A stretch of DNA of 64,000 nt. Source: Balanoglossus misakiensis. Lineage: Eukaryota > Animalia > Hemichordata. Of the stretch, positions 4,675 to 49,155 are shown piece after piece. Position numbers and translations under genes: made by a program. The notes beneath the pieces are model-generated. The model worked only from the letters and a program-made list of their open reading frames with translations, made no database searches and was not told where the DNA came from. Numbering within the stretch: the stretch's first letter is position 1; every line of letters begins with the position of its first letter. The stretch covers positions 3,254,902 to 3,318,901 of the forward strand of contig CM082585.2 in the NCBI GenBank assembly GCA_040954595.2, read 5' to 3'.

Positions 4675-7600
4675 GTTACCAGTTAAGGGGTTTAAAGAAT
4701 TATATAAACAATTCATCAATTTAATGTACAATCATTCCGGATTCTTCAGATTCATAATTTAGCGCTAAAGACCTCATTTTTCAAAGTGGCCTATATCTAA
4801 AATTGCAGACGTTTCAACGTTTTCGGTTAGAGATTTTCTACATATTCACAAAAAGACCACGGGTATTGTTAACACTATTTAAAATCTCTTTACCGGTGAG
4901 TCTGGTGGCGTGTGTACTACGGATCGAAGGTACAAAACTTCGCTCGAAACCCAACGCGAGTTGGAGACCGATTTTATTTACGCACAACATTGTAGCAATT
5001 TTTCGTATGTTTGCGCGCGCTCTGAAATCACACGATGTCAACTGAGTGTGAACTAGTTGTTTCGCGTCGTGTCGTCTGCCCAGTTTTCGTGGCTAAAACG
5101 ACAGGAATAATACCCCAGCTGGCTTTATAATTGCACATATCGTGAGATTTGAGCGCCATAGAAACCGCAGATATCGTGGAACAGGAAGGTTAGTGTTAAA
5201 ATCATTGTTTTTAATCGAAGTATTAATTTGACCTCTGAGTTTTGCTACGTTTGTGTCGGTGTCAAACGGCCGCAATGTTTACACGGCAGCCAAATAGAAT
5301 CGGGGAAATGAAGAAATGTTATCACGATACTTCGGATTTCGTGTTATTATTTCTTGGGAATTTTATCGTTTTCTCAGACGAGGTGACAGGACAGACACAC
5401 GAGGCATCTCGCGGTTCCGTTTTCAATGTTGAATTTTATGTTTTGAGTGCATTTGCGTGTCAGCTGACAGGTCTTTGCATTCATCAGAAGCTATCGTGCG
5501 TCGCTGAGATTTGATTCTTCACAAACGAAAATTATGTCATAATCATACCAAATAAAACATTTCCAGAAATTTAGAAGTTTGCGGACTTTTCTGCTAGTTG
5601 TCTATTTAGTGTTGAAGTCATGCTGAACTGCCAAATTTAACGCAGACTCGCCGTCAACACTCGAACAGTGTACTTCTTCTACGAGTGTGTCCTGTAACTG
5701 CCTTCCTTCGATAACCATACAACAACAAATAGACGGTAAACGTTTATGCAATACCAATGGATTTATGTTTTAAAACTGGTCGACAGTCAGGAAATATGCA
5801 TAAACAATCGATTGATTGTTTTTCCCAGCCAAACTATCGTATCTTGTGATTTTTTTTGTAGTGAAACTGTGGATATCGGCAGGCTGCATTGCAAGTTATT
5901 CTGCACATGCGCAGTTCCTCTGTCTTGAAAGAAAAGTCAAATTTCACCAACTTATTAATGTGCATTCGGAAAAAAAATCCCAAATGTTTTTTTGGTGACC
6001 AAAAATACTGCCAGTGTGATTTTGTGTTCAAATCCAACCTATTATTATTTAAATTGACTTGTGATACCCTCTCTCAGCACATAAAGCATAATTTCAGCCC
6101 CAAAATGGTTGCCATAGAAACATGTGATCACTAAACGGATACCATTTTTGTTCTTTTTGAGCCAATATACCCCTATGGTGAAATTTTTGTGGAAATCGGA
6201 CCTATTATTATTAAAATTATTATTTTTATATAATTCTTTATTTAATTATTTAATAATTACCAGTTAAGGGGTTTAAAGAATTACATAAGCAATTTATCAA
6301 TTTAATAAGCACGGGTGGATTTTCTGTACAATCATTCCTGATTCTTCAGATTCATAATTTAGCGCTAAAGACATCATTTTTCAAAGTGGCCTATATCTAA
6401 AATTGCAGACGTTTCAACGCTTTCGGTTAGAGATTTTCTACATATTCACGAAAAGCCACGGGTATTGTTAACACTATTTAAAATCTCTTTACCCGGTGAG
6501 TGTGGTGGCGTGTGTACTACAGATCGAAGGTACAAAACTTCGCTCGAAACCCAACGCGAGTTGGAGACCGAGTTTATTTACGTACAACATTGTAGCAATT
6601 TTGCGCGCGCTCTGAAATCACACGATGTCAACTGAGTGTGAACGAGCTGTTTCGCGTCGTGTCGTCTGCCCAGTTTTCGTGGCTAAAACGACAGGAATAA
6701 TACCCCAGTTGGCTTTATAATTGCACATATCGTGAGATTTGAGCGCCATAGAAACCGCAGATATCGTGGAACAGGAAGGTTAGTGTTAAAATCATTGTTT
6801 TTAATCGAAGTATTAATTTGACCTCTGAGTTTTGCTACGTTTGTGTCGGTGTCAAACGGCCGCAATGTTTACACGGCAGCCAAATAGAATCGGGGAAATG
6901 AAGAAATGTTATCACGATACTTCGGATTTCGTGTTATTATTTCTTGGGAATTTTATCGTTTTCTCAGACGAGGTGACAGGACAGACACACGAGGCATCTC
7001 GCGGTTCCGTTTTCAATGTTGAATTTTACGTTTTGAGTGCATTTGCGTGTCAGCTGACAGGTCTTTGCATTCATCAGAAGCTATCGTGCGTCGCTGAGAT
7101 TTGATTCTTCATGAACGAAAATTATTTCAAGTAAAACATTTCCTAGAAATTTATAAGTTTGCAGACTTTTCTGCTAGTTGTCTATTTAGTGTTGAAGTCA
7201 TGCTGAACTGCCAAATTTAACACAGACTCGCCGTCAACACTCGAACAGTGTACTTCTTCTACGAGTGGGTCCTGTAACTGCCTTCCTTCGGTAACCATAC
7301 AACAACAAATAGACGGTAAACGTGTATGCAATACCAATGGATTTATGTTTTAAAACTGGCCGACAGTCAGGAAATATGCATGAACAATTGATTGATTGGA
7401 TTTCCCAGCGATACTATTGTATCTTGTGATTTTTTTGTAGTGAAACTGTGGAAATCGGCAGGCTGCATTGCCAGTTGTTCTGCACATGCGCAGTTCCTCT
7501 GTCTTGAAAGAAAAATCAAATTTCACCAACTTATAAATGTGCATTCGGAAAATAAACACCAAATGTTTTCTTTGTGACCAAAAATACTGCCAGTGTGATT

Positions 7601-10600
7601 TCGTGTTCAAATCCAACCTATTATTGCATATGTAGTACAGTATTCCAAGCGGCCCGTGCAATAATAATTCTGGTATTTTTGCGAGCTCATATGCAAATGA
7701 GCAACTAACATAAAATAAGATCCCCAATTTCCTACACAATCGATCTTATCTCTTAAAGTTTATCACCATGTGTTTCATAATCATTTGTAGTTTGTATATA
7801 CCTCCATAGAATTTGCGAAAGGTTTTATTTTACATCCCAAAAAGCTTATTGTTGTTTTAGTTGTGCGCGCGACAATGTGGTATTTTTTACAGCTGATATG
7901 CAAATTAGTAAAAACAAAGACGACCTGTGTCGGAACTATTTTTTTGTTTGTAAATATTGTCGTCTGCTGCTGTGACGAAACCTTTCTATTCCATGGATGA
8001 ACAGTATTACGACTGGACAAACTGCATATATGTTGAAAGTTTAGGGACCGAATTCTATTATCCAGACGAGACAAGTGAAACAAGCCATGATTTATCAGCC
8101 TCGGCAAGTACGGTGGAGAAAAATATGAATATTTCTAGCCCAGGGTCGTCCCTGTCGACAACATCCAGCGCGAGCGCAAGACCGAGATTCGTCGATTTTA
8201 CATCGGAGGACGTAAATACTTTCGTAGGAGACCACAAAAACAAAAACACCGTGTTGAAAACGAAAAGAGAAGTTGCGGTATTTGAAGAATGGAAGGCGAC
8301 CATGACAACAGAAAGTCGGGGTTTGATGGAAATACCGCCTTCTGACCTCGATCCCCTTCTTGCACGGTTTTTTATCGGCGTTCGGAAAAAGAACGGGGAA
8401 GAGTATGAGCCGGACTCGATTTCCAGCTACCAAAAATCTATCGACAGGTGGCTGCGTGATAACAACTACGGCAAGAGCATAATTCGGGACGAAGAGTTCG
8501 CATCAAGTCGTCGTGCCTTAGCAGCAAAACGTAAACAACTGAAAGGCGCCGGGAAGGGCAACTTGCCAAACAAGGCAGAGCCGGTGTCCGCGGAACAGGA
8601 GACGGCGCTACTGAAAGCAGGTCAGCTCGGTGTTCATTCGGCGGTCGCGTTGTTGAATACTATCTGGCTCAACAACACTAAGCTTTTCGGTCTTCGCGGC
8701 AACGATGAACATCATCAAATGGAATGGGGAGACGTGACTTTGCAGGAAGATGAGAACGGCGAATATATCGTGTATAATGAAAGACTCACAAAAACCCGGC
8801 GAGGTGAACCAGGCAATACGCGAAGTTTCGCTCCGAAAGCCTATGCCACCCCTTCCTCTCCTGAAACATGTCCTGTCAGCGTGTACAAGAACTTTGCTTC
8901 GCGACGACCCCAGAAAATGAATACCACTTCCGCACCTTTCTATCTTGGAATCGAGTACGTTCCCTGCACTGTTAACAACGGCATATGGTTTAGAAATCAA
9001 CGAATGGGCATAAATAAACTCCGATCCCTGATGAAAACGATGTCGAAAGCAGCGGGACTGACCGGAAAGTTAAGTAACCACAGCGCTAGAAAGGCCTGTG
9101 TTCAACGCCTCCTCGACGCTGGAGTCCCACCAAATACAACAGCACAACTGAGTGGTCATAAGAATGTATCAAGCCTAAATAGATACGCAGTGGCCAACCA
9201 ATTCCAACAGCGACAGATGAGCGAGATCCTGAGCGGCGCAAAGAAAAGTTTCGATCCGCGACCGTCTTCAAGTGCCACCGATGTTGACAAAACCACCGCC
9301 GACAAGACGTCAACCGATACCAATAATATTGTATCGAGTCAATCTAATGTTTCCGTCCTTACAAACAACGTGAGTGCTTTAAATAACACCCCTCAAGTGC
9401 ACGGTATGTTTGCCAATGCTCAGATTTTTGGCGGAACTTTCAATTTTAGCTTTAATGTCAACAAGTCACCCATCCCTAAACGTCGACGTATTATTTTCCC
9501 TGACTCCGATGACTCAGATTGAACGCAGCTGTAGTTTCGCTCATTTCGGCGAAATGTAATGCCCATTTGATAAGTTTGGAATGTTCGTTTATTACTTGTT
9601 GTTATTTATTGTTCAGTTTAGCTTCGCATTAAATTGTTTATCAAACTTTATTTACATGTATTCGTGTTGTGTTTGACTCGACGATGAATGAAAGTGTGTG
9701 ACCCTGTTATAAATTTGCATATCAATAGCGCTGATGGATTTTAACCAATGAAACGTGACCAAGTAACTTGGGGCAGATCACAAGTGTTTCGCCTATAGTA
9801 TTAATCCGCTGCTATTAACCAGGCCGAGAATTTCGCTAAATTGTGGAACATATGCAATAATAACAGAACGGCACGCCCCCTTGCGGCACTTTGAGGGATA
9901 CGTATGTTATTTTCACTCGTGAGCCGGTGTATCCTGCTGTATTTTCACTCGCTACGCTCGCGAAAATACGGCCGCAGGATACACCGGCTCACTCATGAAA
10001 ATAACATACGTATCCCTCAAAGTGCCGCAAGGGGGCGTGCCGTTCTGTCATATTATTATTTAAATTGAGTTGTGATACCCTCTCTTAGCACAAAAAGCAT
10101 AATTTCAGCCCCAAAATGGTTGCCATAGAAACATGTGATCACTAAATGGATATCATTTTTGTTCTTTTTGAGCCAAAATACCCCTATGGTGAAATTTTTG
10201 TGGAAATCGGACTTATTATTATTAAAATTATTATTTTTATATAATTCTTTATTTAATTATTATTATTACAAGATACCCCTATGGTGAAATCTTTGTGGAA
10301 ATCGAACATATTATTATTTAAATTATTATTTTTATATAATTCTTTATTTAATTATTATTATTATTACCAGTTAAGGGGTTTAAAGAATTCTATAAACAAT
10401 TTATCAATTTAAAGTACCATCATTCCTGATTCTTCAGATTCATAATTTAGCGCTAAAGACATCATTTTTCAAAGTAGCCTATATCTAAAATTGCAGACGT
10501 TTCAACACTTTCGGTTGGAGATTTTCTACATATTCACAAAAAGACCACGGGTATTGTTAACACTATTTCAAACCTTGTTACCCGGTGACTCTGGTGGCGT

Positions 10601-13600
10601 GTGTACGACCATTTTCAACAACCACGAAAGTCGATCTGTCAAATTTTGGTCAGTTCCATAGGCATCGCCATGCAATTTGCAGTGCGGGGCTGGAAAATTC
10701 AAGTGTTGTAGGTTTTAGGATTTGCCACAGAGAGTAAGGCACTTAATGACAGCTTTTTTAAAAGATCAGCTCGCTGGATTTTTTTCGTGTTGGAGACACT
10801 GCTAATTGTAATTTCTGTTTCCGACCCGTAATTTTCCAGACGCTTGACAACGTAGTCAGGCTTTTTGAATACTTAATGAGTGATAATAGACACACCCACT
10901 TTGCGCGCTCAGTCTGAAGACTGTATACAATGGACTAATGTTTTAAAACTGGTCGACATTAAGGAAGTATGCATGAACAATCGACTGATTGGATTCCCCA
11001 GCGATACTATTTTATCTTGTGATTTTTTACTTGTCCAAGAATTTATGGACGATAGCGTCGGCATTGACGATGTGGATACAAACCAACAAGCCGCTGCTAA
11101 CTTAAACCGAACATCCTCCCTTGATTTATTGGGCTTGTTTTTCAGAAATTTACCTATACCTGTATTTAGTATCAGCAGCGGCCGTCAGCAAGAACGTCCC
11201 GGTGCGCATACAAGGCATACCACTTTGAAACTATTTTACACAAGACAGTTGCGGCAAAATCCATGTGAATTGGTTTATTGATTGAGAAAAAATACAAGCT
11301 TTCGCTTGGTAAAACTATCACTACCTAAATCGACAAATATTCTGCAACTTCTACGAAAATATGCCCTGCGAGACGTACTTCGGCTTACATGTCCGCAATT
11401 TTGAATTAATGAGTTGTTCGCCGTCGTCACCTCCGTCTTACGCCTTCCATTGTTAACAAAACGTTCGCGAAAAAAATGACAAAAGATCGTTCGACATGAA
11501 AACGTTACCGAACTCTTTGTGCGTCGAACGCACCCCTGGTTCTGCACATGCGCAGTTCCTATATCTTGAAAGAAAAGTCAAATTTCACCAACTAGTAAAT
11601 GTGCATTCGGAAAATAAAGTCCAAATGTATTATTTGTGACCAAAAATACTGCCAGTGTGATTTTTTTGTTCAAATCCAACCTATTATTATTATTTAAATA
11701 GACTTAGATACCCTCTCTTAGCAGAATTGTCATTGCAATGGACTGTTTTTATGATTTAGGAAAATGTACAATTTAAGCCCCCAAACGAGTAACATCAAAA
11801 TGTGTGTTATCAAAACAAACATCATATTTATTTGTCTTTGCCCTTAGGTACACATTTGGCGGAATTTTGGAGTGATCTCACTACTTATTAATGGAATTTT
11901 GTACATTTTGTGATCACAAAACGGATATCATTTTTGTTCTTTATGAGCCAGGCTACCCCTATGGTGAAATTTTTGTGGAAATCGGACCTATTATTATTAA
12001 AATTATTATTTTTTTATAATTCTTTTTTTAATAATTTAATTATTATTATGTTAATATCCGTTCAATAAATATACTGTAAAATTATATCATTATCTTAAAG
12101 TTCAAAATGACAAAGTCGCTGTTTGACCGATTTTGTGATATCAGGAATACATGGAATACTTGTCACTGTCTCTTACTGTGCAATATAGTGTCAGTGCATA
12201 ACCTAAGAGTCAGAACCTACCCTTGTATGAAAAGTAGACTTGGATGTGATATCTAGATGAAATTAAGTTCCTGTATCAAAGTCTGTCTCCATTGACAAAT
12301 AAACATTGCCACAGCAGTGTACTACATGTAAATGACTGGAATAATCCACACTCTGAGATCTCATTACAAGCCTCATGTGGTCTTAAAACACTATGCAACA
12401 GTGGCTAAGCAGTCAAGTACATGGACAAAATTTGATTCAACAGTGAATAACTTGTGGTAGACACCATACATCGTTGCACTGAACATTCGATCTTGTCTGT
12501 CTACAAGCAGAGAAGAGATTGGGTAGATTTTACCAGTACTTCCGCATGATTCAAGTAGTAAACAAAAGGAACACTTTTCGTATCAAACACAATTCATGGG
12601 AAAAAATAAAAAAGACAGACTTTGTCCCTTTAAGTCGAAGCTTTAAGTTTATCATTTCATAAAGGTATACTTGCATTCCATCAAAGGTGTTATAGTGAGG
12701 GTCTCCAATGCCACTACACTTTTTAGCCCGCGCATCACGGTCGTGTGTTCGGATCTGTTGAGGCAAGACACATGTGTAAATAAATTCAGAGATGGAGAGC
12801 AAAGACAGTATTTGTTGTTCCAAAATAAAAAGAAAGGGACGCATAGACCATCAAATGTTATTGTGTTGTAGAAACAATTGGTTCAAAGCGCTTCACAAAA
12901 AAATTTGAAAACTAGCTAATTTATTCCAGACGAACATTCTAGACTGTATAATTAAAATCATTATAATAAGTCTAAAAATTCAATGTTCCCTAGTTGCAAC
13001 ACAGCTCAACGCACCAGTATCGTGTCGGGAATTCGGTAACCGTTCCAGAGATCAGAATGCGGTGTTTCTATCTGCTTGAATTCCAGAGTAAGATCGCCTG
13101 GGCCATCGCTAAAGAAGTCCCTTCTTGCTTTCACTCGTATAGGATATGGGCCAAGTGGCCTATCTGGCGTCATGAAGGTCCCGCACTGATCTTGGACAAC
13201 GGCGTCGACGTACTTCCCATATATACCAGATCGTTCGGTGATGGTGACCGGGATCTGTACCGAACAGTTCGGTGTACACAGGAACGGCACGGTGGGTTCC
13301 AAATCAATAGACACAGAGTCAAGATTCTCAAAGACATTTATGACTGGGGGTCTGCCGCGAACCTATCAATGCGAAAGTATAATAATGGCAAAAATGGAAT
13401 AAGATCCCGTAAATGCCACATATTCCTTATATAATGCCAACAATGATACCAATTGTTAAGTGTTGTTCCTGTACCCGAACATTCACCTGTTAGGGGTTTA
13501 ACTTTAAATAATGTATTCTACCTACCCATTCATCCATTAGTATATCTATGTGTGCATGCATGCTAGATATGTCTGCCTGTCCATCCATCAAGCTAACTGT

Positions 13601-19000: not shown

Positions 19001-19463
19001 ATTCTTTTGGCACGAACTCGTTCTTCGCGCGCGTCACGTCACTTTCAGCCGGTTTCAAGGATTCCCAACAAAATGCATGATGTCAACAAAAATGAACTCG
19101 ACCACAATAATTGTGACTCGGCAACGTTACACTATTTGGTTTAGCCCTGAAGCCGACAACTATGACGGCTTTCGCGAGTGTTCGAAAAAAGATTCACCTG
19201 CCACATAGAGGAGGCAGACACTTTACTTGGAAATTCGCTCTAGACACTTCAGTCACCTTGCGATAGTCTATATGGACAGTCGTCTAAGCCAATTACCTCT
19301 AAATTAGCATTTCGTCGATTTTTAGCATTCATCATCCACAGTTTCAATGTATTTGTACAACATTATTGTTCAATAAGTGTAGAAAACATATTTTGTTGAT
19401 TTTGTTTTCACCCCACTCACTAGAAGGCGATAGTTGTGACGTCGCTCCGCCATGAAGAATTAG

Positions 19464-19603
19464 GCATAATCCCCGCCTCAGACGGGTATAAACGGGATTT
19501 GGGTACAATTCGAGGAATGTATCACGAGTATATAGAGGAAATTGTACCCAAATCGAGTGTTTACCCGACTGAGGCGGGGGTTATTGCTTTATATTACATC
19601 AAC
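19464..19603 (-). mobile_element. Relic terminal hairpin of a Crypton-like element (element 4)
   Basis: Imperfect palindrome 19464-19587 with CGAG (CTCG on minus) in unpaired segments, followed by TTTAT... as in element 3. The partner end was not found. Confidence 0.6.
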
Positions 19604-24165: not shown

Positions 24166-27100
24166 TTATATATAATTCCCCCGTATTTCGAACGAGCGTG
24201 TCTGCGTCGCGGACGAGTGATTCCCCGTATAGCGGCCGTATCCCTCCGAGCCGCAGGCGAGGAGGGATACAGCTATACGGGGAATCACGAGTTCGCGACG
24301 CAGACACACGAGTGAGGAATGCGGGGGAATTATACTTTTTATCACATACATAGACCAAGTTTCCATGAAATTGAGTTTCATTGTGAATTGAAAACATTTC
24401 AGCAAAAGAAAGATAGCACTATTTTATAATAATAATAATAATAATGCTTTATTGCTCTTTTAGGCCTCCAGCCCATATTGCAAACTTATATTTATACACA
24501 CAGAATTTTACAGAGAGTACAAAAAGAGAAAAGAGATAAAAATTACAAACATTCTTTTCTCAAACTGATTGCTTTGTGAACAAATAAGGCCAGATTTCGT
24601 ATTTCTTTGTTATTTTCTGAAGCCATGAGTGAGTAATATTTTTCGAGTGTTGGAATTGTATATGACCATCTCGGTAAATACATGCTTCTTAAAGTCTGGT
24701 ATAAAGGACAGATACAAATAAAGTGATATTCGTCCTCGATCTCAGTAGACCCACATACTCTGCAAATTCTATCTTCAAAGTCGATTCCCTGTGCCCTCCC
24801 CTCCTCAACTGCCAAATCAAAACCACAAGTTCTAAGACGAGCGAGGGCACTCCTTAGTTTGAAAACAATATTCAATTTTAAGTAGTTCTCTGTATGAAAT
24901 GATGTTTTAAAGTTACAGTACAAACGAAGTTTACTCTTACTACAGGTGTCTGAGAAACAGTTTTGTTTGAAAATATCACTTGCTCTTGTCATAAAATTGA
25001 GAAGAAAAAGATCAAAATCCCCTGGGCCTTGCCATAGCCATACATCTCCAAAACCGTGTTCATGCAAAAGACATTTTACATTTGTTGCCCATGATTTTTT
25101 CCCATTTTTGTCCAGTGTCACCGATAATTTGTAGGCATGTTTGGCTACTCTGTTTGTGGGCATTTTTAATAACTTGAACCAGTATAAAATAACTTTCTTA
25201 AAAGTGTGAATAAATATTGGATGTCTTCCACAATCTCCTAGAATGCAAGCATCTGGTGTAGTTGATTTAACGCCCATAAAGGCTTTACAATATTTCAGTT
25301 GTACTCTTTCAGCAACTTGATATCTCTGATATCCCTATATTTCAGATCCATATGTTAAGACTGGCAATATCATGGAATCAAAAAGTTTAAAATAGTCTTT
25401 AAAAGATAAAGTGCCACTGTTTTTAATCATACGGAAAATAGCGCCCATAGCTTTTCTGGCTTGGTCTGAGAGTACGGTAACAGCTTTACTCCAGATGTTT
25501 CTACTTGAAATTATTAAACCTAAATATTTGTAGTAACTGACAGTTTTTAGTTGTTCTCTATTATAAAACCATTTTTCACATTTCTTTAAAACACCCCCTC
25601 TACGAAAAACAATTATTTGTGACTTTTCCATATTTACAGATAGTTTCCATTTATGACAGAAACATTCCAGTACTCTAGTCAGTCTTTGTAGCCCAACTGG
25701 CGTATCACTAAAAATTGTAACATCATCAGCATAAAGAAGTGCAAATAGGTCGTAAAGTTCTTGAGTGATTTGAATACCATGATTACCCGAATTTACTAAC
25801 ATATTATTTAATTCATTGATGAACAGAGAAAAAAGAAAAGGACTCAACATACACCCTTGTCGAACTCCGACAGAGCAATTAAAGAAATCGGTTACTCCAT
25901 TTCGACTCTTGACACAAGATTTAACTTCTTTATAAATGGATTTAAGAATATTATACATTTTGCCCATGACACCCTCTAGACAAAGTCTATATAACAAGAG
26001 ATTGTGATTTACTGAATCAAAAGCTTTACTGAAATCTACAAACAAACAATAGAAACGACCTTTTGATCTAGAAAGATATTTCTGTACCATAATGTGAAGA
26101 ACAAAGATATTATCAACAGCGCTAAAACCACGTCTGAAACCAGCTTGACATTCAGTGATACAACCTTGCATTTCAGCCCATTTTACAAGTCTCTGATTTA
26201 GTATAAAAGTAAAAATCTTGCCTCTGAAATTGTTTGGGTCATGTAAACTACCCTTCTTATGAAGTGGTACAATTATTCCCTTACTCCACTCGCTTGGAAA
26301 AACACCAGAGTCAAAAATGGCATTGAACGTGAAATCAAGTACCGTGATTAGACTTTGTTTTGCATTTCGATAAAATTCATTGGGGATACCATCCGGACCC
26401 GGGGATTTACCAGCTTTTAACTTATTCAGTGCACAGACGATTTCTTGAGTTGTAATATGACTATTTAGAATCTCTTCAGCACTATTTTAAAACGATCGAC
26501 AGATCATGTTATGCGGTCGGGGTCCTGTGTCGGGGTCACACGCAAACGGACATTAAACCACGATCAGCTGTTAGTAATAACGGGCCCCGAAGGTTAAGTT
26601 TATCGCGCTATTTCTGAGTGAAATCAGACGAAATATGAGACACCTGACGATATTTTTTGTAGGTAAATATGGTTGATAACACAGCAAATTCAGAAACTAC
26701 GTGAACGTTACTTGACAGCGCGGCCCATTGTTTACAACACCGGACATTTTATAAGGGTCGAACTCAACAACATTGACTTTTCGAATAGAAATTGCAAGCA
26801 GCATATCAATTTCATATTTGTGAAACACTTTAGCAATAAAATCATTGTTAAATATTTATATTGAAGACGTGTCGGTTTAAAATCTAAACGCAAACTTTTA
26901 TCCAAGATTAACAGAGAAATTGCTGCATGGATAAACATCATGTATCTGAAACATTGAAAACAACAATAGTTCGTGGTGAATCGACGTCAAATTTACTGAA
27001 AATGCTGGGAAATGACGAGAATAAATTGGCTTTTATCCTACTACGTTCATGTCCTGAGAAATGTCGTTGCTACTGCCTGAAATAAAACATGGTCATCGCT

Positions 27101-27441
27101 CGCCTGCTCGACTCGACCTGTTGACTGGCTGCAAGCTGCTGGGGTTGTGCTGCTCGATGCTCCAGCGATGTCGATCGTGACGTTTAACTTGCAATTTTAC
27201 ATGCTCATTTTACATTTAAAACATGTGCTTTATTACCCCATATTTCCCTGTGCTTCAAAAGTCTCCCTCTTTTGGGATTCGGGCATATTTCTGATCGAGA
27301 ACAGGTGATGTTTGTTTGTTTACATAACGAAAATAGTCCGGGCATCCATATTCAACACATGTGTAATAAGGATTCGTCGAGGTCATATACCTGTAGTGTG
27401 ACGTCACACTATAGGGTTAACTGGGTCTATGTATGTGATAA
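24166..27441 (-). mobile_element. Non-autonomous Crypton-like element (element 3), ~1.2 kb plus a nested LINE
   Basis: 19-bp inverted pair 27424-27442 / 24338-24356 abuts a 164-bp hairpin (24171-24334) with six unpaired CGAG (CTCG on minus). No YR ORF. No empty site is available, so the ends are approximate. Confidence 0.75.
24427..26477 (-). mobile_element. 5'-truncated RTEX-like non-LTR retrotransposon (RT plus C-terminal CCHC region)
   Basis: RT motifs QAGFR, FVDFSKAFDSV, GVRQGCMLSP, LLYADD, YKYLG. C-terminus RICRVC...EDEYHFICICPLY. (TTA)n tail. 12-bp TSD AGCACTATTTTA (24415-24426 and 26478-26489). In-frame stop at 25335. Confidence 0.9.
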
Positions 27442-28642: not shown

Positions 28643-30730
28643 TTAAGCTTCCAAAATTCTCATGTTCGAAATAAGTGTGAAATACTTAGTGAGGTTATTA
28701 AAATAATTTTTTTTCAAAAATCATACAGCAGTCATTAACTGAAAGTATTTATTTATTTATTTATTTTTTTATTTATTTATTTTTTTATTTATTTATTTAT
28801 TTATTTATTTGTAAAACACCTTACTAGCCTAAAACTGGTCATTTGCTACTTTTCGACACAGAGCAAAAGCTTTGCTTAGACTGTCGCAACATTTATCAGT
28901 TTGGGTACCAGAATTCACAAGCCGAAATGACAATCACAGCCCAAAATGTTACATCTCAACTTATTTGACGCTAGTTTGCGCGCGCTGGATAGTTTGACAG
29001 ATCACAGAGTCGCTTATTTTGATACCAGGGCGCGTAATAAATTTCGTCGACAGACTGCAACATTTAGATGAAAAATGAGAAGATGTATCAAAGGTTAAAA
29101 CATTCTAGGATAATTAGCAAACTCAATTGCCTAGGGGGCCCTAATCAGATGCCGCCAAAAAGGAAAACGATGTGTCCATTGTGACTGGCAATCTGTCACT
29201 ACTTTAACTCTGATGTCTTCTATCTTTGTACTTATATATCGTCCACTGCCTCAGTTTCCAGCCAAGCACAGAATACAGAATTGTTCGTCAGTTATTTTAT
29301 GTTATTGTTGTTGTTTTGTTATTATCGTCTTTATGCATGTGTGCGATGGGGATAGAGAGAAAAGAAATCGTTGAATAATGTCATTTTTTACAGATTATTA
29401 CTACGCACTTAAAGCTCATCTTCGAAACGGTTACAGACATAAGCTACACGCAAACGTATTAGACACGTGTCAGACAGATATAGGAATATGGAATTGAACT
29501 TTAGGGAACAACACATGCCGTCGTTTGGTTTAAATCAATTGAAATAGTGAAATGTAAGCAAACGAAAGGTTGTCATGTACGGTTTATAGGAATGACTCTT
29601 TCTAACAAGCATCGCGTATCGTGTTCAGTGCTAATATTAACGCTGTAAACGTTAGGGGGCAAATTATAGTTAATACAACAACAGACGGCCCCTATTATTT
29701 TCTTTTTCTTTTTTGTAAAACCCCTGCCTACTCGACTATCATAACAAATCGAAAAGCTTTTGCAAAGAGAAGCATCGCTTGAAAACAACCACGGCAAGTA
29801 ACAAGTCCGCAAACGCACCAAAACCCAACGACACTAAACCGTACGATATCCAAATTTTGGCGGAAAGATGTAATAATACGAGCAGATTGTAAACTCTCGG
29901 CGGTGTGATCTCGGGTACAATCAGTACCATTTAGGCGCTCTAATGCATTTGGCCGCCGGTCATTCCCCAACCACATCTCGACAGTTTGCCGATAGTCGTT
30001 GTCATCACTTTGATGAAATAGGTACGTCGGAGTTTTTCTCGCAGGGTTTCGAGTGCATCATCGAACAAGCGACCCCATATGTGAAAGGGCGCCACCAAGC
30101 TCAGATGGAAGGTTTTTTTGGCAAGCATGCACTCTTCAGGTAGAAGTGTGCGTAGGACGAATATTTAAATATTTTCGAGAAACATGGTCTATAAATGCAT
30201 ACATTTTACAAGCTTTAGTTAACGTGGCCGCTTGCCAACTTGCTTTGTGAAAATGTATAACCATCACCCACGCTTTGAACAGGTTGACCTCTGTCCATAT
30301 ATCTCTTTCTTATCTTCTATGGTGATCGGTGGCAGAGGGAGATATATTGCTCATAGGAGTGTGTTTAGTATACAAGAGAATAGTGCAGTAGCCTTATTTA
30401 AATATTATCAACAATGCACATTGTGAACCCGCCCAAACGTTGGGAATAGTCGACAGCCTTTAAACAGGAACTAAGCGCAAATATTCAACACGGTAAAACT
30501 AACCTTCGAGATCGTACAGAGAAATATCTTACACACAGTGGAGGGACCATGACTTATATTAGTTTAAACGTTAAAAACTGCCGCAGGCAGTTCGGGTTGT
30601 TTGGCCCGTTATGGAGATGTTGAGTGTTCTTATCGTTTGTTCAAGAATGCCGTCACCTGTGCTTCACTTTTAAATAGCCAGGGTTCAGTAGGGTCAGCTA
30701 CCTAGCCACAGGTAGGGAAGGGAAGACAAG

Positions 30731-32215
30731 ATGGCGTCGAATATGTCCGAAGTGAAGCAGCACATGAAGGACGGGCTGCTGTCATGCGCAATCTGTTCCG
30801 AAGTGTACAGGACACCAAAGGTACTGCCCTACAGACGAACTACCAACTGGCGGAACTAGTCGGGTTGCCAAATACAGATTTATGCCCTAACCCAAAATAT
30901 CAGTATGCACAATGTTTTTTTGCAGATTACTCAACTATAACCCAAATCTTTATGATGCCACCTTGGCACCATTGAGGGTTTCGAGAAATCCAAGACGGCC
31001 GCCAAGATGGCCATCAACCATGAAACAATAATTTTGGTAATAGTCGAACTACGTGTCTGCTTTTTTCTCTATTTCTGTTTTCGGGGCCATTGAATCCATA
31101 TTTAGCATTGGTTGGAAACCAGAAAACCGAGCCCTCCAATTTGGCTGTTTCCGATGACGGTATTTACTATGTCACGGACATCGGCAACGGGCAGATTGTC
31201 GTCTGCGACAAGGACAGCCACCTGCTGAGAACCTTCGGCCAAGACGAGCCCCTCAAACCAGATGGTATCGTGCTGACACGAGACGGGTACTGCCCTACAG
31301 ACGAACTACCAACTGGCGGAACTAGTCGGGTTGCCAAATACAGATTTATGCCCTAACCCAAAATATCAGTATGCACAATGTTTTTTTGCAGATTACTCAA
31401 CTATAACCCAAATCTTTATGATGCCACCTTGGCACCATTGAGGGTTTCGAGAAATCCAAGACGGCCGCCAAGATGGCCATCAACCATGAAACAATAATTT
31501 TGGTAATAGTCGAACTACGTGTCTGCTTTTTTCTCTATTTCTGTTTTCGGGGGCCATTGAATCCATATTTAGCATTGGTTGGAAACCAGAAAACCGAGCC
31601 CTCCAATTTGGCTGTTTCCGATGACGGTATTTACTATGTCACGGACATCGGCAACGGGCAGATTGTCGTCTGCGACAAGGACAGCCACCTGCTGAGAACC
31701 TTCGGCCAAGACGAGCCCCTCAAACCAGATGGTATCGTGCTGACACGAGACGGGTTCGTCGTCATGAGCGATTTGCAGAAGATGGCCACTACCTCAGGAA
31801 GTACACGCTTGACGGGCGACACGTAGCGACGTGCGGAAAAAGTGGCAGCGGCCCCGGGGAGTTCAACTGTCCATCCTCGCTCGCAGGAGTAACCAGTCAC
31901 AACCAGATTCTTGTCTCTGATGGAGCGATAACAATCAAATCCACATTCTGAACACGGATGGACGCTACGTATCTTCGGCAGCAATTTTTTGAGCGGGCCT
32001 GGTGGGATCGAAGAGGATCGGAACGACAACGTGTACGTCTGCGACGACGCCGCCAAAGTTTTGAAGTTCGACAAACGCGGGAAATTTCTGGAGACAGTCG
32101 TTCATGAAGGTGATATTGTTCCTTTCTACGTCGGGGTCAGGAGAAAAAAACGGCGTTCCTGGCAATCAGCGAAGGTTGCAACAACGATGTCAAAGTTGTC
32201 ACACTGCAAAGGTGA
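30731..32215 (+). pseudogene. TRIM-NHL pseudogene copy 1 (RING start plus NHL repeats)
   Basis: MASNMSEVKQHMKDGLLSCAICSEVYRTPKVLP, then a break. NHL repeats PSNLAVSDDGIYYVTDIGNGQIVV and GKSGSGPGEFNCP. Frameshifts present. Confidence 0.8.
30821..31754 (+). repeat. Near-perfect ~466-bp tandem duplication within TRIM copy 1
   Basis: GTACTGCCCTACAGACGAAC at 30821 and 31287; the copies differ by about one G. Confidence 0.92.
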
Positions 32216-34366: not shown

Positions 34367-35902
34367 TTGGGCATTAATGCACACAAATTTATGTGAAGCT
34401 AAGTTCAGAGAATCACAATACACCACCTGAAACCACAATTTGTTAATCCAGATTGTACTAAAATTACTCCAGAAATTCGACGTAAACTGAGGTGTAGAAC
34501 ACTTCACGGTCAGAGTGGGTCATATTGGCCAATTTAAAGATGTTTTAACAGGAGACCCGTATTTGTCTCTGCTGATATTAAACATGTAAGTAAACAACAT
34601 TAATAGGAATGCCTTATACATAGACTTGACACCACATAATGTCATAATGGTGTAGGCTCGGGAAGTAAATAGAGTAAAAGTGGAGAATGAGTTGAAATAA
34701 CAGAACACAACAAGAATCACACCCATACAGATTTAAGGCACCGCAGGGTACTTACTGAAATGGACAAAAACCATCACGAACTGCATTGCTGTCAAATTTG
34801 ACAAGACCCGTGAACCAATTAGAGAGTTTGTGTATGCTTATCTTTGACATAGGCAGAGTTGAACCTTTTTGATCAAACGTGAGAATATTTTCAGCAAACG
34901 TTCTCCACAGATATATGCAGGCACAATGTTCGCTTATACATCACGTCATCAAAGCGTGCTCACATGCTTCTTTTCATTGTATTTCAAATTTATTATTAAC
35001 ATTTTAAAGGTCGGTGTCCCCTATTAAAAGTTTTCAAGGTGGTCAGAGAGTGGTTACCTATTGGAGGAATGTTAGTTTAACATAACTATTTATAAACGTC
35101 TGGCCTGGAATTCCTACCTTGGGTCAAACTACGGTTCCTGGCATGTCTCTTGAGGTCAAACTGAATAAGTATTAAGCATTCTTATCTCAAGTGGCAAAAT
35201 AATAAATTTAAATCAGAGCAGCCACGTGATAACACGAAACAAAAATTGTTTCATAGTATTATTCAGGTGTGATGGACTTGACATTGGTACTTTACCCAAC
35301 TTGCCAACTTGCTTGGTGAAAATTTACCACCATCACCCACGCTTTGACAAGGTTGACCTCTGTCCAATTTATTCAAGTTGCAAGATCGTTGCATGTGTAG
35401 GCCTGCGTTTGTACATGTAAATGTATTTCTTAACACGCGTTATATCTCATTCTTATCTTCAATGGTGATCGGTGGCAGAGGGAGATAGATTGGTTATAAG
35501 GGTGTGTTTAGTATACTAGAGAATAGTGCAGTAGCCTTATTTAAATATTATCAACAGTGCACATTGTGAACCCGCCCAAACCTTTGGAATAGTCGACAGC
35601 CTTTAAACAGGAACTAAGCGCAAATATAAGTAAAACTAACTTATGAGATCGTACAGAGAAATAACTTATACACAGTGGAGGGACCGCGACTTATATTAGC
35701 TTAAACGTTAAAACGGACACAGGCAGTTCAGGTTGTTTGTCCCATTATGGAGTCATGACTAAGTGCTGGTAGTCGTTGAGTGTTCTTATCGTTTGTTCAA
35801 GAATGACGTCACTTGTGCTTCACTTTTGAATAGCCAGAGTTCAGTAGGGTCAGCTACCTAGCCACAGGTAGAACATTTGTTGCTGAGGGACGGGAAGACA
35901 AG

Positions 35903-39476: not shown

Positions 39477-42400
39477 TTAAATGTGCAAATGTGCTATAAC
39501 CTGTTTCTCTTGGATCTTTACAGGATTTCTCATCAAATACTCTTTTGCAGTTTCATTCAAATTGTCTTCATCCTCCCACGTATTATGTTTGTTTGAATAA
39601 TTCTTCCACTTAACCAAATACTGTAATTTCCCATTTCTATATCGACCCTTTAACACATTTTCTATTTCGTAAAATGGCTCAGAAGCATTATTCTGACAAT
39701 TCCCATTGTTGTCAGTTTCATCGATAGCACTGGGACTTGTCCTTGACGACAAATCTCTCAATCCCAATCCGTCAATTTGATCAGAACCATTTTCTGATTC
39801 TGCATATATTTCTGCTTCTGGACTTTGACATATTTCGGTCCCATTTTCATAATTTGTGGTTTCTGGGACATCGTTTTCTTCACACGACTCATCAGATGAG
39901 GATGAGTCAAACTCAGAGGGGCGCAAATAAGCTCTTTTTAGTCTATTCTCATGTATGACTTTACGATAATTTCTGGTGCTATTTATGAAACGCAACTTAT
40001 AATTAACAGGACTCACCTTTTCAGAAATAATGTAAGGACCTGTCCACTTATGTACGAATTTCTTATTAACTCCTGGTTTAACAGCTGGTGTGTATAAATA
40101 TACAGGATCCCCCACTTTAAGATGTTGTGACCGTTGGATATTTTGATCATAACGGTCCTTCATATTCTGTTGATATCGATCTATATTCTCTTTGGCGATT
40201 TTATGAGCTATCTCCCTTTTAGCAGCTAAATGTTTAAGGTGTGTATCTATATTTCTTGTCCTCCCCTCAACTGGCTGGAATTCAACATCCATGGGCAATG
40301 TGGGATGCCGACCGTATAACAGATAATACGGGCTGAACCCACTGGACTCTTGAGGGCTAACTCTATAAGCGAAAAGCACTGAACTTAGGTACCGATCCCA
40401 ATCTTTCTGTTTACTATCGACAAACATGGACAGCATGTCGACTAGGCAACCGTTGAAACGCTCTGTAAGGCCATTGGTCTGTGGACGATAAGGGGTGGAA
40501 ACTTTCCTCTGAATGTTGAAATATTTGCAAGTTTCACGAACTACTTGGGATAAAAAATTCGATCCCTGATCACTCATCAAAACTCTGGGGCTTCCATAAG
40601 TAGCAATTACTTCATCAAACAAAATCTTAGCAACTGTCTCAGCTCGTGCATTACGTAATGGATATGCTAGTGGGAATTTAGTAAAGTAATCAGTAAGTAC
40701 TAAGATGTATTTATGACCATCATAAGTTCTAGGGAGGGGTCCCACAATATCCATACCCAGTCGGTCCCAGGGTCCTGATACTGGAATAGGTAACAACTTA
40801 GCACGAGTAGTGGGTGTGGCTCTCTTTCGTGTGTGACAATGTGCGCATGTCTTTACGTACATATTAACATCCCGGGGCATCCTTTCCCAAAAATACCTCT
40901 GTCTTAAAACTCCCAACGTTTTAGTGTATCCCAAATGTCCCGCTAAAACACAATCATGAGCCCACCGCAGAACATAATTTCTTAAGGACTTAGGTATCAC
41001 AACCTGTCTAACACAATCTAATTTACCAGCTGATTTCCCCGTGGGTTTCCAAAAATGATACAAAACCCCGTCAACAATGTCGTAATTTGGAGCCATACTA
41101 ACAAATTTACGAGCTAACTTTTGATCAGTAGGTAGCTCATCATTCTCTAAATAATTCAGAAATTTACTCAAATAATTATCTTTTCTCTGTTCTCCCTTCA
41201 TTCGTGATTGTACCTCACTGTCGAATGTGTTATCCACTTCAGTGTTGGAAGCATTTTCCTCCACGTCAGTGTTAGAAGTATCGTTAGAACTGTTAATTAA
41301 AGTCCCATACCCAGGTGTGTCCTCATTATTTGCAGAATTATGAACCTCGGGTTCGGTTTGTTGCCCTGCATGTACATTATTTATACAAGGTGAGTTTATG
41401 GGCTCAGTGTTTACACACTTATCTACCATTGGAAACTGACTGTTAGGCTTGTAATTTATCTCAGGCGCATGCTCTAAATCAGTGACGTCAGACTTGTACC
41501 CCTCACATTGTTGATATGGTCTCCTTGACAACCCGTCAGCATTCATGTGTTTCTTACCAGGTCTATAGATAATTTCGTAATCGTACTGCTGCATGGTCAT
41601 TATCCAACGGCCAATACGCCCCCTCGGTATTTTCTGTTTAAACATGTAAGTCAGATTGGAGTGATCAGTCACTATAGTAACACGGTTGCTACGTACATAG
41701 TGATCACATTGTCGAATAGCATGAATGACGGCCAAAGCTTCCAATTCTGTAATTGAGTAATTTCTTTCGTGACAGTTTAAACTTCGACCCCCATATAAAA
41801 TTACTCGTTCAACACCATTCTGTCGTTGAGCTAAAACAAACCCCAGGGCATGAGTGGAACTATCGGTATAAATTATAAAATTTTCATTCATATCAGGATA
41901 CCCTAGAATTGGTGCATGACACAGAACATGTTTTAATTTCTCGAATGCTTGTTCGCATCGATCATCCCATTCAAATTTCGTGTCCTTTCCCAACAATTTA
42001 TGCAGAGGCCTTGCAATGATCGAGAAATTCTTTATAAACTTTCTATAATAATTGGCCAACCCCAAAAATGATTTCAACTGTGTGACAGTATGAGGACGGG
42101 GATATTCTTTAACAGCTGTTACTTTACTCTCGTCAGCCGCAATTCCATCCTTACTGATAATATGACCCAAAAATTTAACACTCTTTCTCATAAATTGACA
42201 TTTGCTGGGCTTTAATTTCAATCCAGCTTGACGTAACCTGGTTAGGACAGTATCAATGTGTTGTAGATGCTCCTCAAAAGAGCTGCTAAATATAATAATA
42301 TCATCGATATAACATAACACATATTGCCACATAATATTGCGTAACACGTGTTGCATAGTACGCTGAAAACAACTGGGACTATTTCGCAACCCCTGGGCAA

Positions 42401-44637: not shown

Positions 44638-44703
44638 AGTGCAATCTCTCCGCTGGACGTCGCCGTTTCTGTCTCCGATGGATTTGTTTCGTCTACCCTC
44701 GTT

Positions 44704-44712
44704 TCTCCACCA
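44704..44712 (-). promoter_or_regulatory. Primer binding site, probably tRNA-Ala
   Basis: TGGTGGAGA lies 2 nt inside the 5' LTR boundary and is complementary to a tRNA 3' end ...UCUCCACCA. Confidence 0.7.
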
Positions 44713-44714
44713 TG

Positions 44715-45505: not shown

Positions 45506-46998
45506 CTGCATTGCTGTCAAATTTGACAAGACCCGTGAACCAATTAGAGAGTTTGTGTATGCTTATCTTTGACATAGGCAGAGTTGAACCTTTTTGATCA
45601 AACGTGACAATATTTTCAGCAAACGTTCTCCACAGATATATGCAGGCACAATGTTCGCTTATACATCACGTCATCAAAGCGTGCTCACATGCTTCTTTTC
45701 ATTGTATTTCAAATTTATTATTAACATTTTAAAGGTCGGTGTCCCCTATTAAAAGTTTTCAAGGTGGTCAGAGAGTGGTTACCTATTGGAGGAATGTTAG
45801 TTTAACATAACTATTTATAAACGTCTGGCCTGGAATTCCTACCTTGGGTCAAACTACGGTTCCTGGCATGTCTCTTTAGGCCAAACTATATAAGTATTAA
45901 GCATTCTTATCTCAAGTGGCAAAATAATAAATTTAAATCAGAGCAGCCACGTATTATTCAGGTGTGATGGACTTGACAGTGGTACTTTACCCAATTTGCC
46001 AACTTGCTTGGTGAAAATTTACCACCATCACCCACGCTTTGACAAGGTTGACCTCTGTCCAATTTATTCAAGTTGGAAAATCGTTGCATGTGTAGGCCTA
46101 CGTTTGTACATGTAAATGTATTTCTTAACACGCGTTATATCTCATTCTTATCTTCTGATCGGTGGCAGAGTGAGATATAATTCTCATAGGGGTGTGTTTA
46201 GTATACTAGAGTATAGTGCAGTGACCTGATTTCAATATTATAAACAGTGCACATTGTGAACCCGCCCAAACTTTGGGAATAATCGACAGCCTTTAAACAG
46301 GAACTAAGCGCAAATATTGAACACGGTAAAACTAACCTACGAGATCGTACAGAGAAATCTCTTATACACAGTGGAGGGACCATGACTTTTATCATATGCT
46401 CATGCTGATATCACCTCCTCCAAGTGACGTTTAACGTGAATATCACCACGTTTAGTGAGAAATATCACCGGCGATATTTAACACTAAACGTCATCATTTC
46501 TTGCGCTTATACCCGGAACTATGTTCATGAAAATGGCGACCTTAGATGTAAACAAACATAACCCTATACAGGGCCCGGTTTCATGAGATTTGACATACCG
46601 GTAGTCAACATCGATATGCATGGAGTTCTGATGGCCACGGACATGTGTTATAAATAAAGGATTTATCTTGGTGATTGATTTGGAAAACAAACGATTATTA
46701 GTTACACACGTAGAAAAAATATGACAACGTCACGTCAACACTGTGCGTCACGCGCGCGAGTAGTTGTCCAGGTGACCGGTCTGTTTACGGTCGTTTACCA
46801 AATAAAGATAACCCGAATATTTTCACAATTATACCTTCTTCAGACTTTTTTTTGTAGTTTTCAGTAAAATAAACGACTACATTTTTTATGGTTACGTTTT
46901 AAAAACAATTCACCACTAAAATGAAAATCCGGTCAATAAAAAGTGGATGCCTATCGAACGTACGGCAAAATTTACTCACTTCCTAAATAGACATTGCA

Positions 46999-48423
46999 AT
47001 GGAAGCATTCAATGACCCAGAGATACAGGAAATTTTCCAACTTGCTGAGTTATTGTGTCAAGATGACACTGATACTGCTGTACCCGAACCAAATCAGCAA
47101 CAACAGCAAAATCAAAATCGGTATGTGGAATTTAATGATGGCGATTTGGACGACTTTGTGGACCAGCAAAAAAAGAAGAATACCGTAAGGAGTACGAACA
47201 CGGCAGTGAAGCAGTTTCAAGAATGGATGTCGAGTATGCGCCCAACAGAAACTCGTCGTATTGTTGATATGCCACCCCAAGATCTGGATAGCCACCTTGC
47301 TGCGTATTTTGTTGGAGCCAGGCAGAAAAATGGTGAGCAGTATGAACCCGATACTTTGACAAGCTATCAGCGGGGAATCGAGCGTTATCTTCAGGACAAC
47401 GGTTACCCGGTCTCGATCATCCGTGGCAATGAGTTCCAGCGCTCCCGAAAATGCCTCTCAGCAAAAAGAGTTGAACTAAAAAAACAGGGACGGGGAAATA
47501 AGCCACAAGCTGCCGAAGTGATTACAGATGAAGAAGAACAACTTTTAATTGAACGAGGATTTGTCGGTCGATCGACTCCCGAAGCGTTGTTCAACGCAGT
47601 TTGGATGAACAACACCAAGATGTTGGGCTTTCGCGGTGGCCAAGAAAACCGGGAATTGAAATGGGGGGATATCAAGCTCAAAAATACGGCCGACCACAAA
47701 GAATATCTCGAATTCAACGAAAGGGAGACTAAGACCAGATTTGGACAAGCTGGTGCAAAACCACGACCCTTCAACCCCAAAATCTTCGCAACTCCCGAGA
47801 AGCCAGACACATGTCCCATAGCCACATACAAGGAGTTCGCTAATCGTCGCCCCGTTGAAATGAATACCCCAGACAGCCCCTTCTACTTGGCAATCAATTA
47901 TTCGCCCTCATCAACCATATGGTTTAAGAAATCTCCAATGGGAAAGAATAAGTTGGCAACAGTCGTCCAGAGTATGAGCGAGAAAGCGGGCATCAGAGGG
48001 AAAAAAACCAATCACAGCATGAGAAAAACAGCCATCACGAAATTGCTGCACGCAGGCATTCCACCGACCCAAGTACAACAGTTATCGGGCCACAGTCAGC
48101 TGCAGTCGGTCAACAACTACGCCACCGCCTCGCTCAGGCAGCAGGAGGAGATGTCAAACATCCTCGCTCCATGTTCATCCAAACAAGTCGAAAATCGGGC
48201 AATTTCTGGTTCCGTCAGTTCAAACACGTGTCAGATGGAAGCGGCGACAACGGGCGGTATATTTAGCGACGCAGTGATATATGGCGGCTCGTTTAATATC
48301 TATGTTTCAAATGCGACGTCAACGGGATCATCATCTATGACACAGCCCCCACCACCGTACAAACGCCGCCGCCGTGCAGTCATTTATGACTCTCCGTCCT
48401 CATCAGAAAATTCCCAGGAATGA
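46999..48423 (+). CDS. Tyrosine recombinase, DUF3504/Crypton type, 474 aa
   Basis: RQKNGEQYEPDT; LGFRGG (R), TKTR (K), NHSMRK (HxxR), SGHSQ (H), NNYA (Y). Clearly homologous to, but diverged from, the ORF at 7993-9522. Confidence 0.92.
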   Translation: MEAFNDPEIQEIFQLAELLCQDDTDTAVPEPNQQQQQNQNRYVEFNDGDLDDFVDQQKKKNTVRSTNTAVKQFQEWMSSMRPTETRRIVDMPPQDLDSHLAAYFVGARQKNGEQYEPDTLTSYQRGIERYLQDNGYPVSIIRGNEFQRSRKCLSAKRVELKKQGRGNKPQAAEVITDEEEQLLIERGFVGRSTPEALFNAVWMNNTKMLGFRGGQENRELKWGDIKLKNTADHKEYLEFNERETKTRFGQAGAKPRPFNPKIFATPEKPDTCPIATYKEFANRRPVEMNTPDSPFYLAINYSPSSTIWFKKSPMGKNKLATVVQSMSEKAGIRGKKTNHSMRKTAITKLLHAGIPPTQVQQLSGHSQLQSVNNYATASLRQQEEMSNILAPCSSKQVENRAISGSVSSNTCQMEAATTGGIFSDAVIYGGSFNIYVSNATSTGSSSMTQPPPPYKRRRRAVIYDSPSSSENSQE

Positions 48424-48900
48424 TCAGACTTTGAGACTCTTTTTGAACTTTGAAATGAATGGCTTTATTAAATTATTTGCAATTTAACTGATGTCATACC
48501 GATTTTAAACATGTTAAATTCATGACGTTCACTTGTTGTTGCACCCCCAAAAAAATGTGTTCGATTCAATTTTCAAACGTTTTGTTGTTTTGCATGATAG
48601 AGAGCGGTTGACCTCCTTGAACAATTTACTATTTAAAGACATCTTTGACTTACCGATGTTGTCGTTTCCCACCGTTATTTAACATCTTTACAGTTATCCT
48701 CATATTTTTATATCACCGCTACGCTACACTTAAAAATGGCGCGTCATGTCAACATCATCAGTCATGAATGAAGCCGATTTACAATGTTAATAAAATATCA
48801 ATGCGCTAAGCGGAATAAAATAATTCATTAAAATTAAAGTGTTCTCGCTTTATTTTTTCATTTTTCTTGTAAATTCCGAAGTTTGAGCATATGATAAATC

Positions 48901-49046
48901 GGTTATCGCCCCATATCCCCTCTTGTTGGGCCATATTTGTGTGGGTTGTGAGCTGCATCACACTCGTCTTCGACTCGTGTGATGCTGCTCACAACCCACA
49001 CTCGCGGCAAATATGGCCCAACAAGAGGGGATATGGGGCGATAACC
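48901..49046 (+). repeat. Terminal hairpin of element 2
   Basis: 39-bp perfect outer stem, one-sided bulge CTCGCGG, T-T mismatch, apical CTCG-TCTTCGA-CTCG. Confidence 0.97.
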
Positions 49047-49155
49047 TCATAATATTAGTTTAAACGTTAAAAACTGCCGCAGGCAGTTCGGGTTGTTTGG
49101 CCCATTATGGAGTTGTTGAGTGTTCTTATCGTTTGTTCAAGAATGACGTCACCTA

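Follow-up and report, generated by a model that had tools for sequence, protein, structure and literature searches.

How does a transposon that encodes a tyrosine recombinase (YR) and no reverse transcriptase (RT) make use of an internal sequence that is complementary to both of its termini? This question is raised by element E1, which lies in a 64,000-nucleotide stretch of transposon-rich animal DNA (the window). The first-pass annotation had placed a YR element without RT at 7621..10052, with a terminal hairpin and an internal reverse complement of the joined ends, and had proposed, by analogy with DIRS retrotransposons, integron attC and CTX attP, that one strand may fold on this internal splint, which would hold both termini side by side as a substrate of the recombinase.

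An intact CryptonA element

CryptonA has been defined as the Cryptons with DUF3504 (PMC13465315; here and below, the cited papers are drawn on for the portions available). E1 carries a YR with this domain and encodes a YR only. The element, its ends and the unoccupied copies of its target are the following.

7621..10052, plus strand: E1, a CryptonA element of 2432 bp (empty sites, a joint skipping 2432 nt, and a detector length of 2432)
7621..7633, plus strand: left end of E1, beginning TTAT, the predicted cleavage-side recombinase arm
7993..9522, plus strand: sole long ORF of E1, a 509 aa DUF3504 tyrosine recombinase (Pfam matches, alignment)
10046..10052, plus strand: right-end spacer of 7 nt, which terminates the element
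5921..6189 (plus strand) and 11564-11726: unoccupied copies of the E1 target repeat (comparison within the window)

The host DNA around E1 is repeated sequence, two unoccupied copies of which lie inside the window, and a contig joint (7618->10051) found in two sequencing runs of one sample omits 2432 nt; filled and empty sites, by which mobility is judged in CryptonA, are both present. In run X3, another flank meets the left end of E1 at 7619. E1 and its empty sites overlap by 7 nt (TATTATT), which by itself leaves the cut position ambiguous by 7 nt, and the register TCATA|TTAT is fixed by a second element, E2, whose overlap with its empty sites is 0. Sequence comparison of the ends of E1 found no TIR, no true TSD and no long terminal repeats. 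Read depth in run X2 was 52,865 at 7653, inside the left end, versus about 570 at the ORF, an excess that suggests many gene-less kin, depth not being equal to copy number. No end-to-end circle joint of E1 or E3 was present among the joints listed, which come from one-sample contigs with rare forms dropped and are uninformative either way. RNA data sets containing E1 were likewise absent from those listed, which says nothing about its expression.

The ORF of E1, which has no intron, matches DUF3504 with an E-value of 4e-26 (92 bits against a Pfam cut-off of 29.7) and Phage_integrase with 2.5e-10, while neither the ORF list nor the Pfam search revealed RT, RNase H, DDE, GCR1_C or Gag in the element. 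Residues R235, K267, R366, H389 and Y398 are invariant across 36 aligned sequences and H363 is also present; the intact R-H-R-Y set points to a transposon rather than a domesticated gene. The nearest named proteins belong to hemichordates, with 59% over 96% of the query in one case and 70% over 64% in the other, so the host is probably a marine invertebrate. The top structural match of the AlphaFold model (mean pLDDT 75) is Cre (Z 16.6, rmsd 7.4 A, 286 aligned), followed by an archaeal Xer (Z 16.1) and QRICH1 (Z 15.1); IntI4 ranks below Cre (Z 12.9, rmsd 7.2, 250 aligned; profile E 0.011), and Tn1549 Int appears among both the sequence and the structure matches. Like CryptonA as described in PMC3212892 and PMC13465315, E1 has a single DUF3504 YR with intact R-H-R-Y in an element of about 2.0-2.7 kb, and it resembles the group also in lacking a C-terminal GCR1_C, TIR and TSD and in having non-autonomous kin. 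E1 is an intact CryptonA DNA transposon, and its initial description as a YR element without RT is borne out by the empty sites, the contig joint, the DUF3504 ORF and the absence of an RT domain.

Several other features were observed along the way. The motif ATATGCAAAT, which we take to be octamer-like and which is possibly a promoter or binding motif, occurs in E1 at 7671-7704 and 7878-7911, upstream of the ORF, and inverted at 9707-9724, downstream of it. Small palindromes lie 5' of the ORF at window 46448-46491 and in the related loci L009 (311-348), L004 (49-93) and L054 (2859-2924), and such upstream palindromes in related loci often adjoin CCAAT-like sequence. Elsewhere, the window carries a Gypsy-type LTR retrotransposon encoding gag, protease, RT, RNase H, integrase and a chromodomain (39477-44730, minus strand), a MITE-like sequence of about 450 bp that is bounded by ~32-nt terminal inverted repeats and contains short repeats (49571-50021), an ORF with a GT4-conflict glycosyltransferase match (58065-59384, E 2e-31), and two related stretches (50147-51112 and 31634-32101) with NHL-repeat-like coding fragments recognized by eye.

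The fold at the right end

The right end of E1 is organized as follows.

9848..9860, plus strand: internal complement of the E1 left arm, a 13/13 complement of 7621..7633
9861..9865, plus strand: internal spacer of 5 nt, opposite the 7-nt end spacer (bubble)
9866..10045, minus strand: long terminal hairpin of E1, its bottom strand carrying GA loops in tandem
9917-9918/9993-9994 and 9949-9950/9958-9959, minus strand: the tandem GA loops of the E1 bottom strand
9951..9957, minus strand: GCGTAGC mini-hairpin (GNA triloop) at the hairpin tip, on the bottom strand only

Sequence comparison confirmed that, 2 missing nt apart, the stretch 9848-9871 is reverse-complementary to the E1 ends once these are joined. 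The hairpin is about 200 nt long, its arms (9860-9937 and 9974-10051) have 78 nt each and are 95% complementary, and its folding z-score is -23.8 against 200 shuffles, in agreement with what had been noted from the sequence at first. The 13-nt complement of the left end is located at the base of this hairpin. Since the right-end half of 9848-9871 is that same hairpin base, the independent evidence for the suggested splint is the 13-nt left-end match alone; complementarity to the left terminus holds, and the right half adds nothing beyond the hairpin. Among 4000 random 25-mers of the window, a draw that may contain the element ends themselves, at most 1 (E1), 3 (E2) and 1 (E3) equalled the observed match.

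Other readings of the hairpin were considered and set aside. Rfam matches to miRNA precursors reached 37.8 bits versus a gathering threshold of 90 and are generic stem matches; a protelomerase-type role was rejected on the ground that the conserved parts are the hairpin base and the tip structure, not the sequence of a palindromic centre.

The same design is found at other places in the window.

46389..49051, plus strand: E2, same design as E1 with another end sequence (empty sites, zero overlap)
46999-48423: intact DUF3504 ORF of E2, 43% identical to that of E1
30236-30658 and 35305-35812: empty sites of E2, with no junction letters in common
24166..27441, minus strand: E3, a third family with the same design (empty-site joint 24165->27442, overlap 0)
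19460..19601, minus strand: E4, right end of a fourth element, with hairpin and 5-versus-7 spacer (by eye)

A search within E3 found no recombinase match, and the element is interrupted by an RT-encoding LINE-like insertion, which was observed at 24543-26486 (minus strand) and is bypassed by a contig joint (24403->26478). The window copy of E3 carries one additional base that most contigs lack, and in the corrected register its left arm and internal copy agree at 13/13 positions. No left end was found for E4.

When the ends are joined, an arm (..ATAA, GTAA or ATTA in most families, not in E1) is followed by a 7-nt spacer and, across the crossover, by an arm beginning with TTAT. The internal copy is inverted and has a 5-nt spacer unlike the end spacer in sequence, so that 5 nt regularly lie opposite 7 nt in a bubble adjoining the crossover, as in integron attC or CTX attP(+). 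Empty sites establish the length of 7 nt for E1-E3 only; in several multi-copy families it follows from shared ends, and for the remaining ones it is assumed; in the L040 family the end spacer has 6 nt. The Crypton ends compared showed no conserved base where the spacer adjoins the cut. The mismatch between spacers of 5 and 7 nt speaks against the functional side of the DIRS analogy. Indeed, DIRS-1's internal complementary region (ICR) is an exact complement of both ends and templates their repair (PMC7192593), whereas an internal copy that mismatches the 7-nt spacer is unable to template the right end.

The end layout among relatives

A metagenome scan confirmed 443 relatives, of which the best 80 of 443 were kept, and a prokaryote-genome scan added 2 further loci that are probably host DNA within MAGs; the scan of viral contigs gave no relatives. 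As a separate observation, animal-type Cryptons lie within bacterial MAG contigs at L081 2118-3494 and L082 4001-5302 (a 439-kb contig). The 82 loci group into 42 ORF families. An unsupervised detector, which requires a left arm, an internal complement, a 5-nt spacer and a hairpin base, was positive in 18/84 sequences overall and, as a control, in 6/160 cross-family chimeras. The full layout was present in 14/29 loci with enough flank, or 12 without L036 and L046, whose matches are in the wrong register and are probably spurious, their family counting by way of L056 and L057. By family, it was present in 9 of the 18 testable ones (7 from the 82 loci, plus two window elements). The left arm agreed with its own internal copy at 8.3/10 of positions 5-14 and with cross-family copies at 3.8, in a comparison that took E3 one base out of register, and only 3/156 cross-family arm pairs scored 9.

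The expectation that relatives would share the left-end complement and the hairpin is thus upheld in half of the testable families, and the other 9/18 are negative in the full detector. Four of these (L027/75, L048, L069, L082) have the hairpin, with the left end undetected. In the remaining five (L005, L030/72/76, L055, L064, L071), the detector and the motif scan found no hairpin of this kind and no tip motif; these families are scattered among positive families in a tree of 27 rows of chosen loci from the present survey, which is compatible with decayed copies without proving it. Multi-copy families have left ends at TTAT or TAAT, with flanks that differ between copies. In one family of Cryptons (L034/L036/L046/L051/L056/L057/L065) the ORF is in the opposite orientation to the ends, the hairpin tip being flipped in L034 and deleted in L036/L046. 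Additional hairpins with the same tip or loop signature were seen at a distance from the ORF in L035 (1468-1572), L050 (2191-2307) and L072 (3819-3921), and are probably neighbouring gene-less elements.

The host sequence at the insertion sites shows a preference on one side. In particular, beyond 23 right ends, with anchors picked by hand, position +2 is T in 21/23, +3 is A in 16/23 and +4 is T in 16/23, position +1 being variable; the count leaves out the L040 family, the truncated L009, L010, L056 and L069, the duplicate L046, and L005 and L050, whose hairpins look unrelated. No left-flank host position was significant at p<0.01 among 21 left ends. The arm-side nTAT preference and the random host sequence on the spacer side indicate that targets resemble the arm and bear no relation to the spacer. 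The spacer itself is identical in 4/4 copies of the inverted-ORF family and in 3/3 of the related L003/L029/L048, and spacers of the L008 group differ by single changes only.

The strand on which the fold is written was compared in 34 ORF-linked hairpins, found regardless of motif and falling into 18 clusters. On the bottom strand of the 18 cluster representatives, 2x2 loops are GA/GA in 23 cases versus TC/TC in 2, mismatches are purine-purine in 107 versus pyrimidine-pyrimidine in 43, and G.T occurs in 35 cases versus A.C in 19. The tip carries CGNAG on the bottom strand in 22/34 hairpins and on the top strand in 4/34, or 11 versus 3 among the representatives (p 0.057; p-values here count related families as independent). 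Within the 64-kb window there are 3 instances of the composite tip motif, one each in E1, E2 and E3 and all on the bottom strand of the element concerned, against a null mean of 0.03 (30 resamples). In L008, L075 and L034 the hairpin interior is on the wrong strand, through either a real inversion or an assembly flip. In the inverted-ORF family, the loop signature tracks the ends, as judged from the left-end match and the shared boundaries, and not the gene, so that an origin from mRNA or cDNA becomes less likely; a role as a transcript hairpin was set aside on the same evidence. ViennaRNA energies of the two strands of E1-E3 are equal, so the standard model gives no added support to a strand preference. 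Tandem GA is stable in DNA. The DNA form of GNA mini-hairpins greatly exceeds the RNA form in stability, the RNA melting temperature quoted being that of the tetraloop form (PMC13037366). The literature search found no paper on tandem sheared GA plus triloops.

As to earlier descriptions, animal Cryptons were reported without terminal repeats by Kojima and Jurka in 2011 (PMC3212892), no detectable repeats were reported for fungal Cryptons in the Glomhopper paper (PMC13465315), and the available portions of these two papers contain no description of the internal complement, the hairpin or a single-strand model. Kojima connected Eulor5/6 to Crypton termini in 2018 (PMC5753468), and Bao in 2015 mentions hairpins for Helitrons only, in the text available (PMC4455052). 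The titles and abstracts listed in the literature searches yielded no description of this Crypton end design, and the portions of Crypton papers examined contain no demonstration of the transposition route. The end layout is a genuine trait, family-wide within an already known group of transposons, and the mechanism proposed for it below is unreported in the literature searched.

A proposed single-strand route and its alternatives

Judging from the end structure, we consider it fairly probable that the recombinase integrates E1 from a folded bottom strand, antisense to the ends, much as IntI acts on attC and XerC on CTX attP(+), by a single-strand exchange that replication completes. In the step that is least constrained, the recombinase would exchange the bottom strand only at both ends, and replication would free a bottom-strand circle, or else a double-stranded circle would extrude a cruciform. 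The joined ends and the internal copy would then pair to give a cleavage arm of 13-19 bp, a 7x5 bubble and, as second arm, the hairpin base. Tyr398 would cleave the bottom strand after ..ATAA, and one strand would be exchanged with an nTAT target in duplex form, no spacer homology being needed, leaving a junction to be resolved by host replication or repair. A YR monomer occupies duplex DNA 5' of the cut, and the 5'-OH is set free into the spacer. With this placement, cleavage of the bottom strand after ..ATAA would seat the enzyme on the left-arm duplex, which is paired, and leave the free end in the bubble, whereas with a top-strand cut the enzyme would sit on the bubble. Moreover, the constancy of spacers within families implies that the host-bearing top strand is not inherited, which favours exchange of one strand. 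The idea of a folded single-strand substrate, as a prediction, is strengthened by a layout that recurs with changed sequence and kept pairing and by the strand-polarised signatures of the hairpins. For the internal copy, a role as partner strand in a recombination site is a better reading than that of a ligation splint.

Folded sites of this kind are known in bacteria. The integron attC site folds from the bottom strand, is cut after AA, and has an unpaired 5-6-nt spacer, a G.T and purine skew and a GAA terminal loop; as in an integron cassette, the unit in E1 begins at the cleavage arm (TT..) and has its complement at the base of a 3' hairpin (PMC5027507). The Crypton ends have, at sequence level, the bottom-strand hairpin, cleavage box, unpaired spacer, strand skew and GAA tip of attC, and the one-strand, replication-resolved exchange of integrons (PMC5027507) is proposed for them likewise. 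The differences are also clear: the Crypton arm has 13-19 nt versus 7 nt in attC, its stem has GA/GA loops instead of defined extrahelical bases, and it shows no conserved base on the spacer side of the cut (PMC5027507). Unlike attC, the ends begin with TTAT or TAAT with no conserved preceding G, and the GTTRRRY core and AAC triplet are missing; unlike integrons, Cryptons are eukaryotic, encode their own recombinase and have no attI platform, and the fold of the E1 protein is nearer to Cre than to IntI4. In CTX phage, attP1 and attP2 are inverted sites with ATTA/TTAT arms about 90 bp apart, and, as proposed here, two inverted copies of a YR site with differing spacers pair in ssDNA into an active site and exchange one strand pair (PMC3089051). 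CTX relies, however, on host XerCD, a fixed dif target and ssDNA from phage replication (PMC3089051), and the Crypton target is a loose nTAT. For excision, the Vibrio SE elements, YR elements that circularise one strand only in a copy-out manner, are a possible model, although they are bacterial, have four core genes and are not described as having a folded end in the portion of PMC9345347 available; Starship circles are another (10.64898/2026.09.21.753150).

The other explanations have to account for the same ends. In classical duplex excision and integration (the Goodwin model), the joined ends would form an ordinary duplex YR site, and the internal copy and hairpin would be accessory binding or resolution sites. 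The joined ends, in which inverted ATAA..TTAT arms flank a spacer of 6-7 nt, do resemble a site of the dif/lox type, the E1 protein has a Cre-like fold, E1 shares a 7-nt overlap with its target, and circles have been demonstrated for Starships, another eukaryotic YR element (10.64898/2026.09.21.753150). What makes this reading unlikely is that the overlap is zero in E2 and E3, that host sequence on the spacer side is random, and that the one-strand GA/GNA signatures would be purposeless. Two-strand exchange, as in Cre or lambda, requires spacer homology. A duplex exchange of the Tn916/Tn1549 type is independent of homology and proceeds through a heteroduplex spacer. It would account for insertion without overlap, and both sequence and structure comparisons gave Tn1549 Int as one of the matches, yet it predicts a variable host-derived coupling sequence at one end, against spacers that are nearly constant within families, and leaves the internal complement unaccounted for; we consider it very unlikely.

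A retro route of the DIRS kind, in which a borrowed RT would copy a full-length RNA into single-stranded cDNA and the internal copy would circularise it before integration by the YR, is improbable in our judgement. As in DIRS-1, a YR is combined with an internal region near the right end that is complementary to the left and then the right terminus, DIRS RT works in trans, and DIRS-1 has a single-stranded antisense intermediate, the counterpart of which is proposed for Cryptons (PMC7192593); the bottom strand is the cDNA strand in most families, and the E1 ORF is intronless. Unlike DIRS, with its RT and Gag, inverted LTRs and exact 88-bp ICR (PMC7192593), E1 has neither RT and Gag nor long terminal repeats, its internal copy, regularly mismatched, differs from the end spacer and hence could not template it, and the inverted-ORF family bears the signature on the mRNA-sense strand. 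We likewise give little credit to a real ssDNA fold that would act in second-strand priming or circle protection, as a primase-type signal, with recombination on duplex DNA. Phage ssDNA priming origins indeed carry mini-hairpins that resist SSB and nucleases (PMC13037366), but such a role leaves unexplained both the absent spacer homology and the fact that the fold restores a two-armed site precisely over the crossover, together with a 7x5 bubble of fixed size.

If integration from a folded bottom strand is taken further, animal CryptonA elements may be eukaryotic, self-mobilising counterparts of integron cassettes, in which a single transposon-encoded tyrosine recombinase would join a folded bottom-strand site, defined by its structure, to almost any nTAT target through one strand exchange and no spacer homology, a reading for which the sequence evidence tips the balance slightly. 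We know of no earlier YR with an ssDNA substrate in eukaryotes. The ends are exactly known, the strand and position of the cut are predicted, and both a target preference and an intact enzyme are available, which reduces the question to a simple oligonucleotide assay. The end design is a structural signature for locating gene-less Cryptons, and it raises the question of whether the ICR of DIRS is likewise a recombination site. If the proposal is true, a one-protein, marker-free integrase for ssDNA donors would be available, folded-ssDNA tyrosine recombination, described for bacterial IntI and XerCD, would extend to animals, and activity on ssDNA substrates would be ancestral to the DUF3504 domains of ZMYM, QRICH1 and KCTD1.
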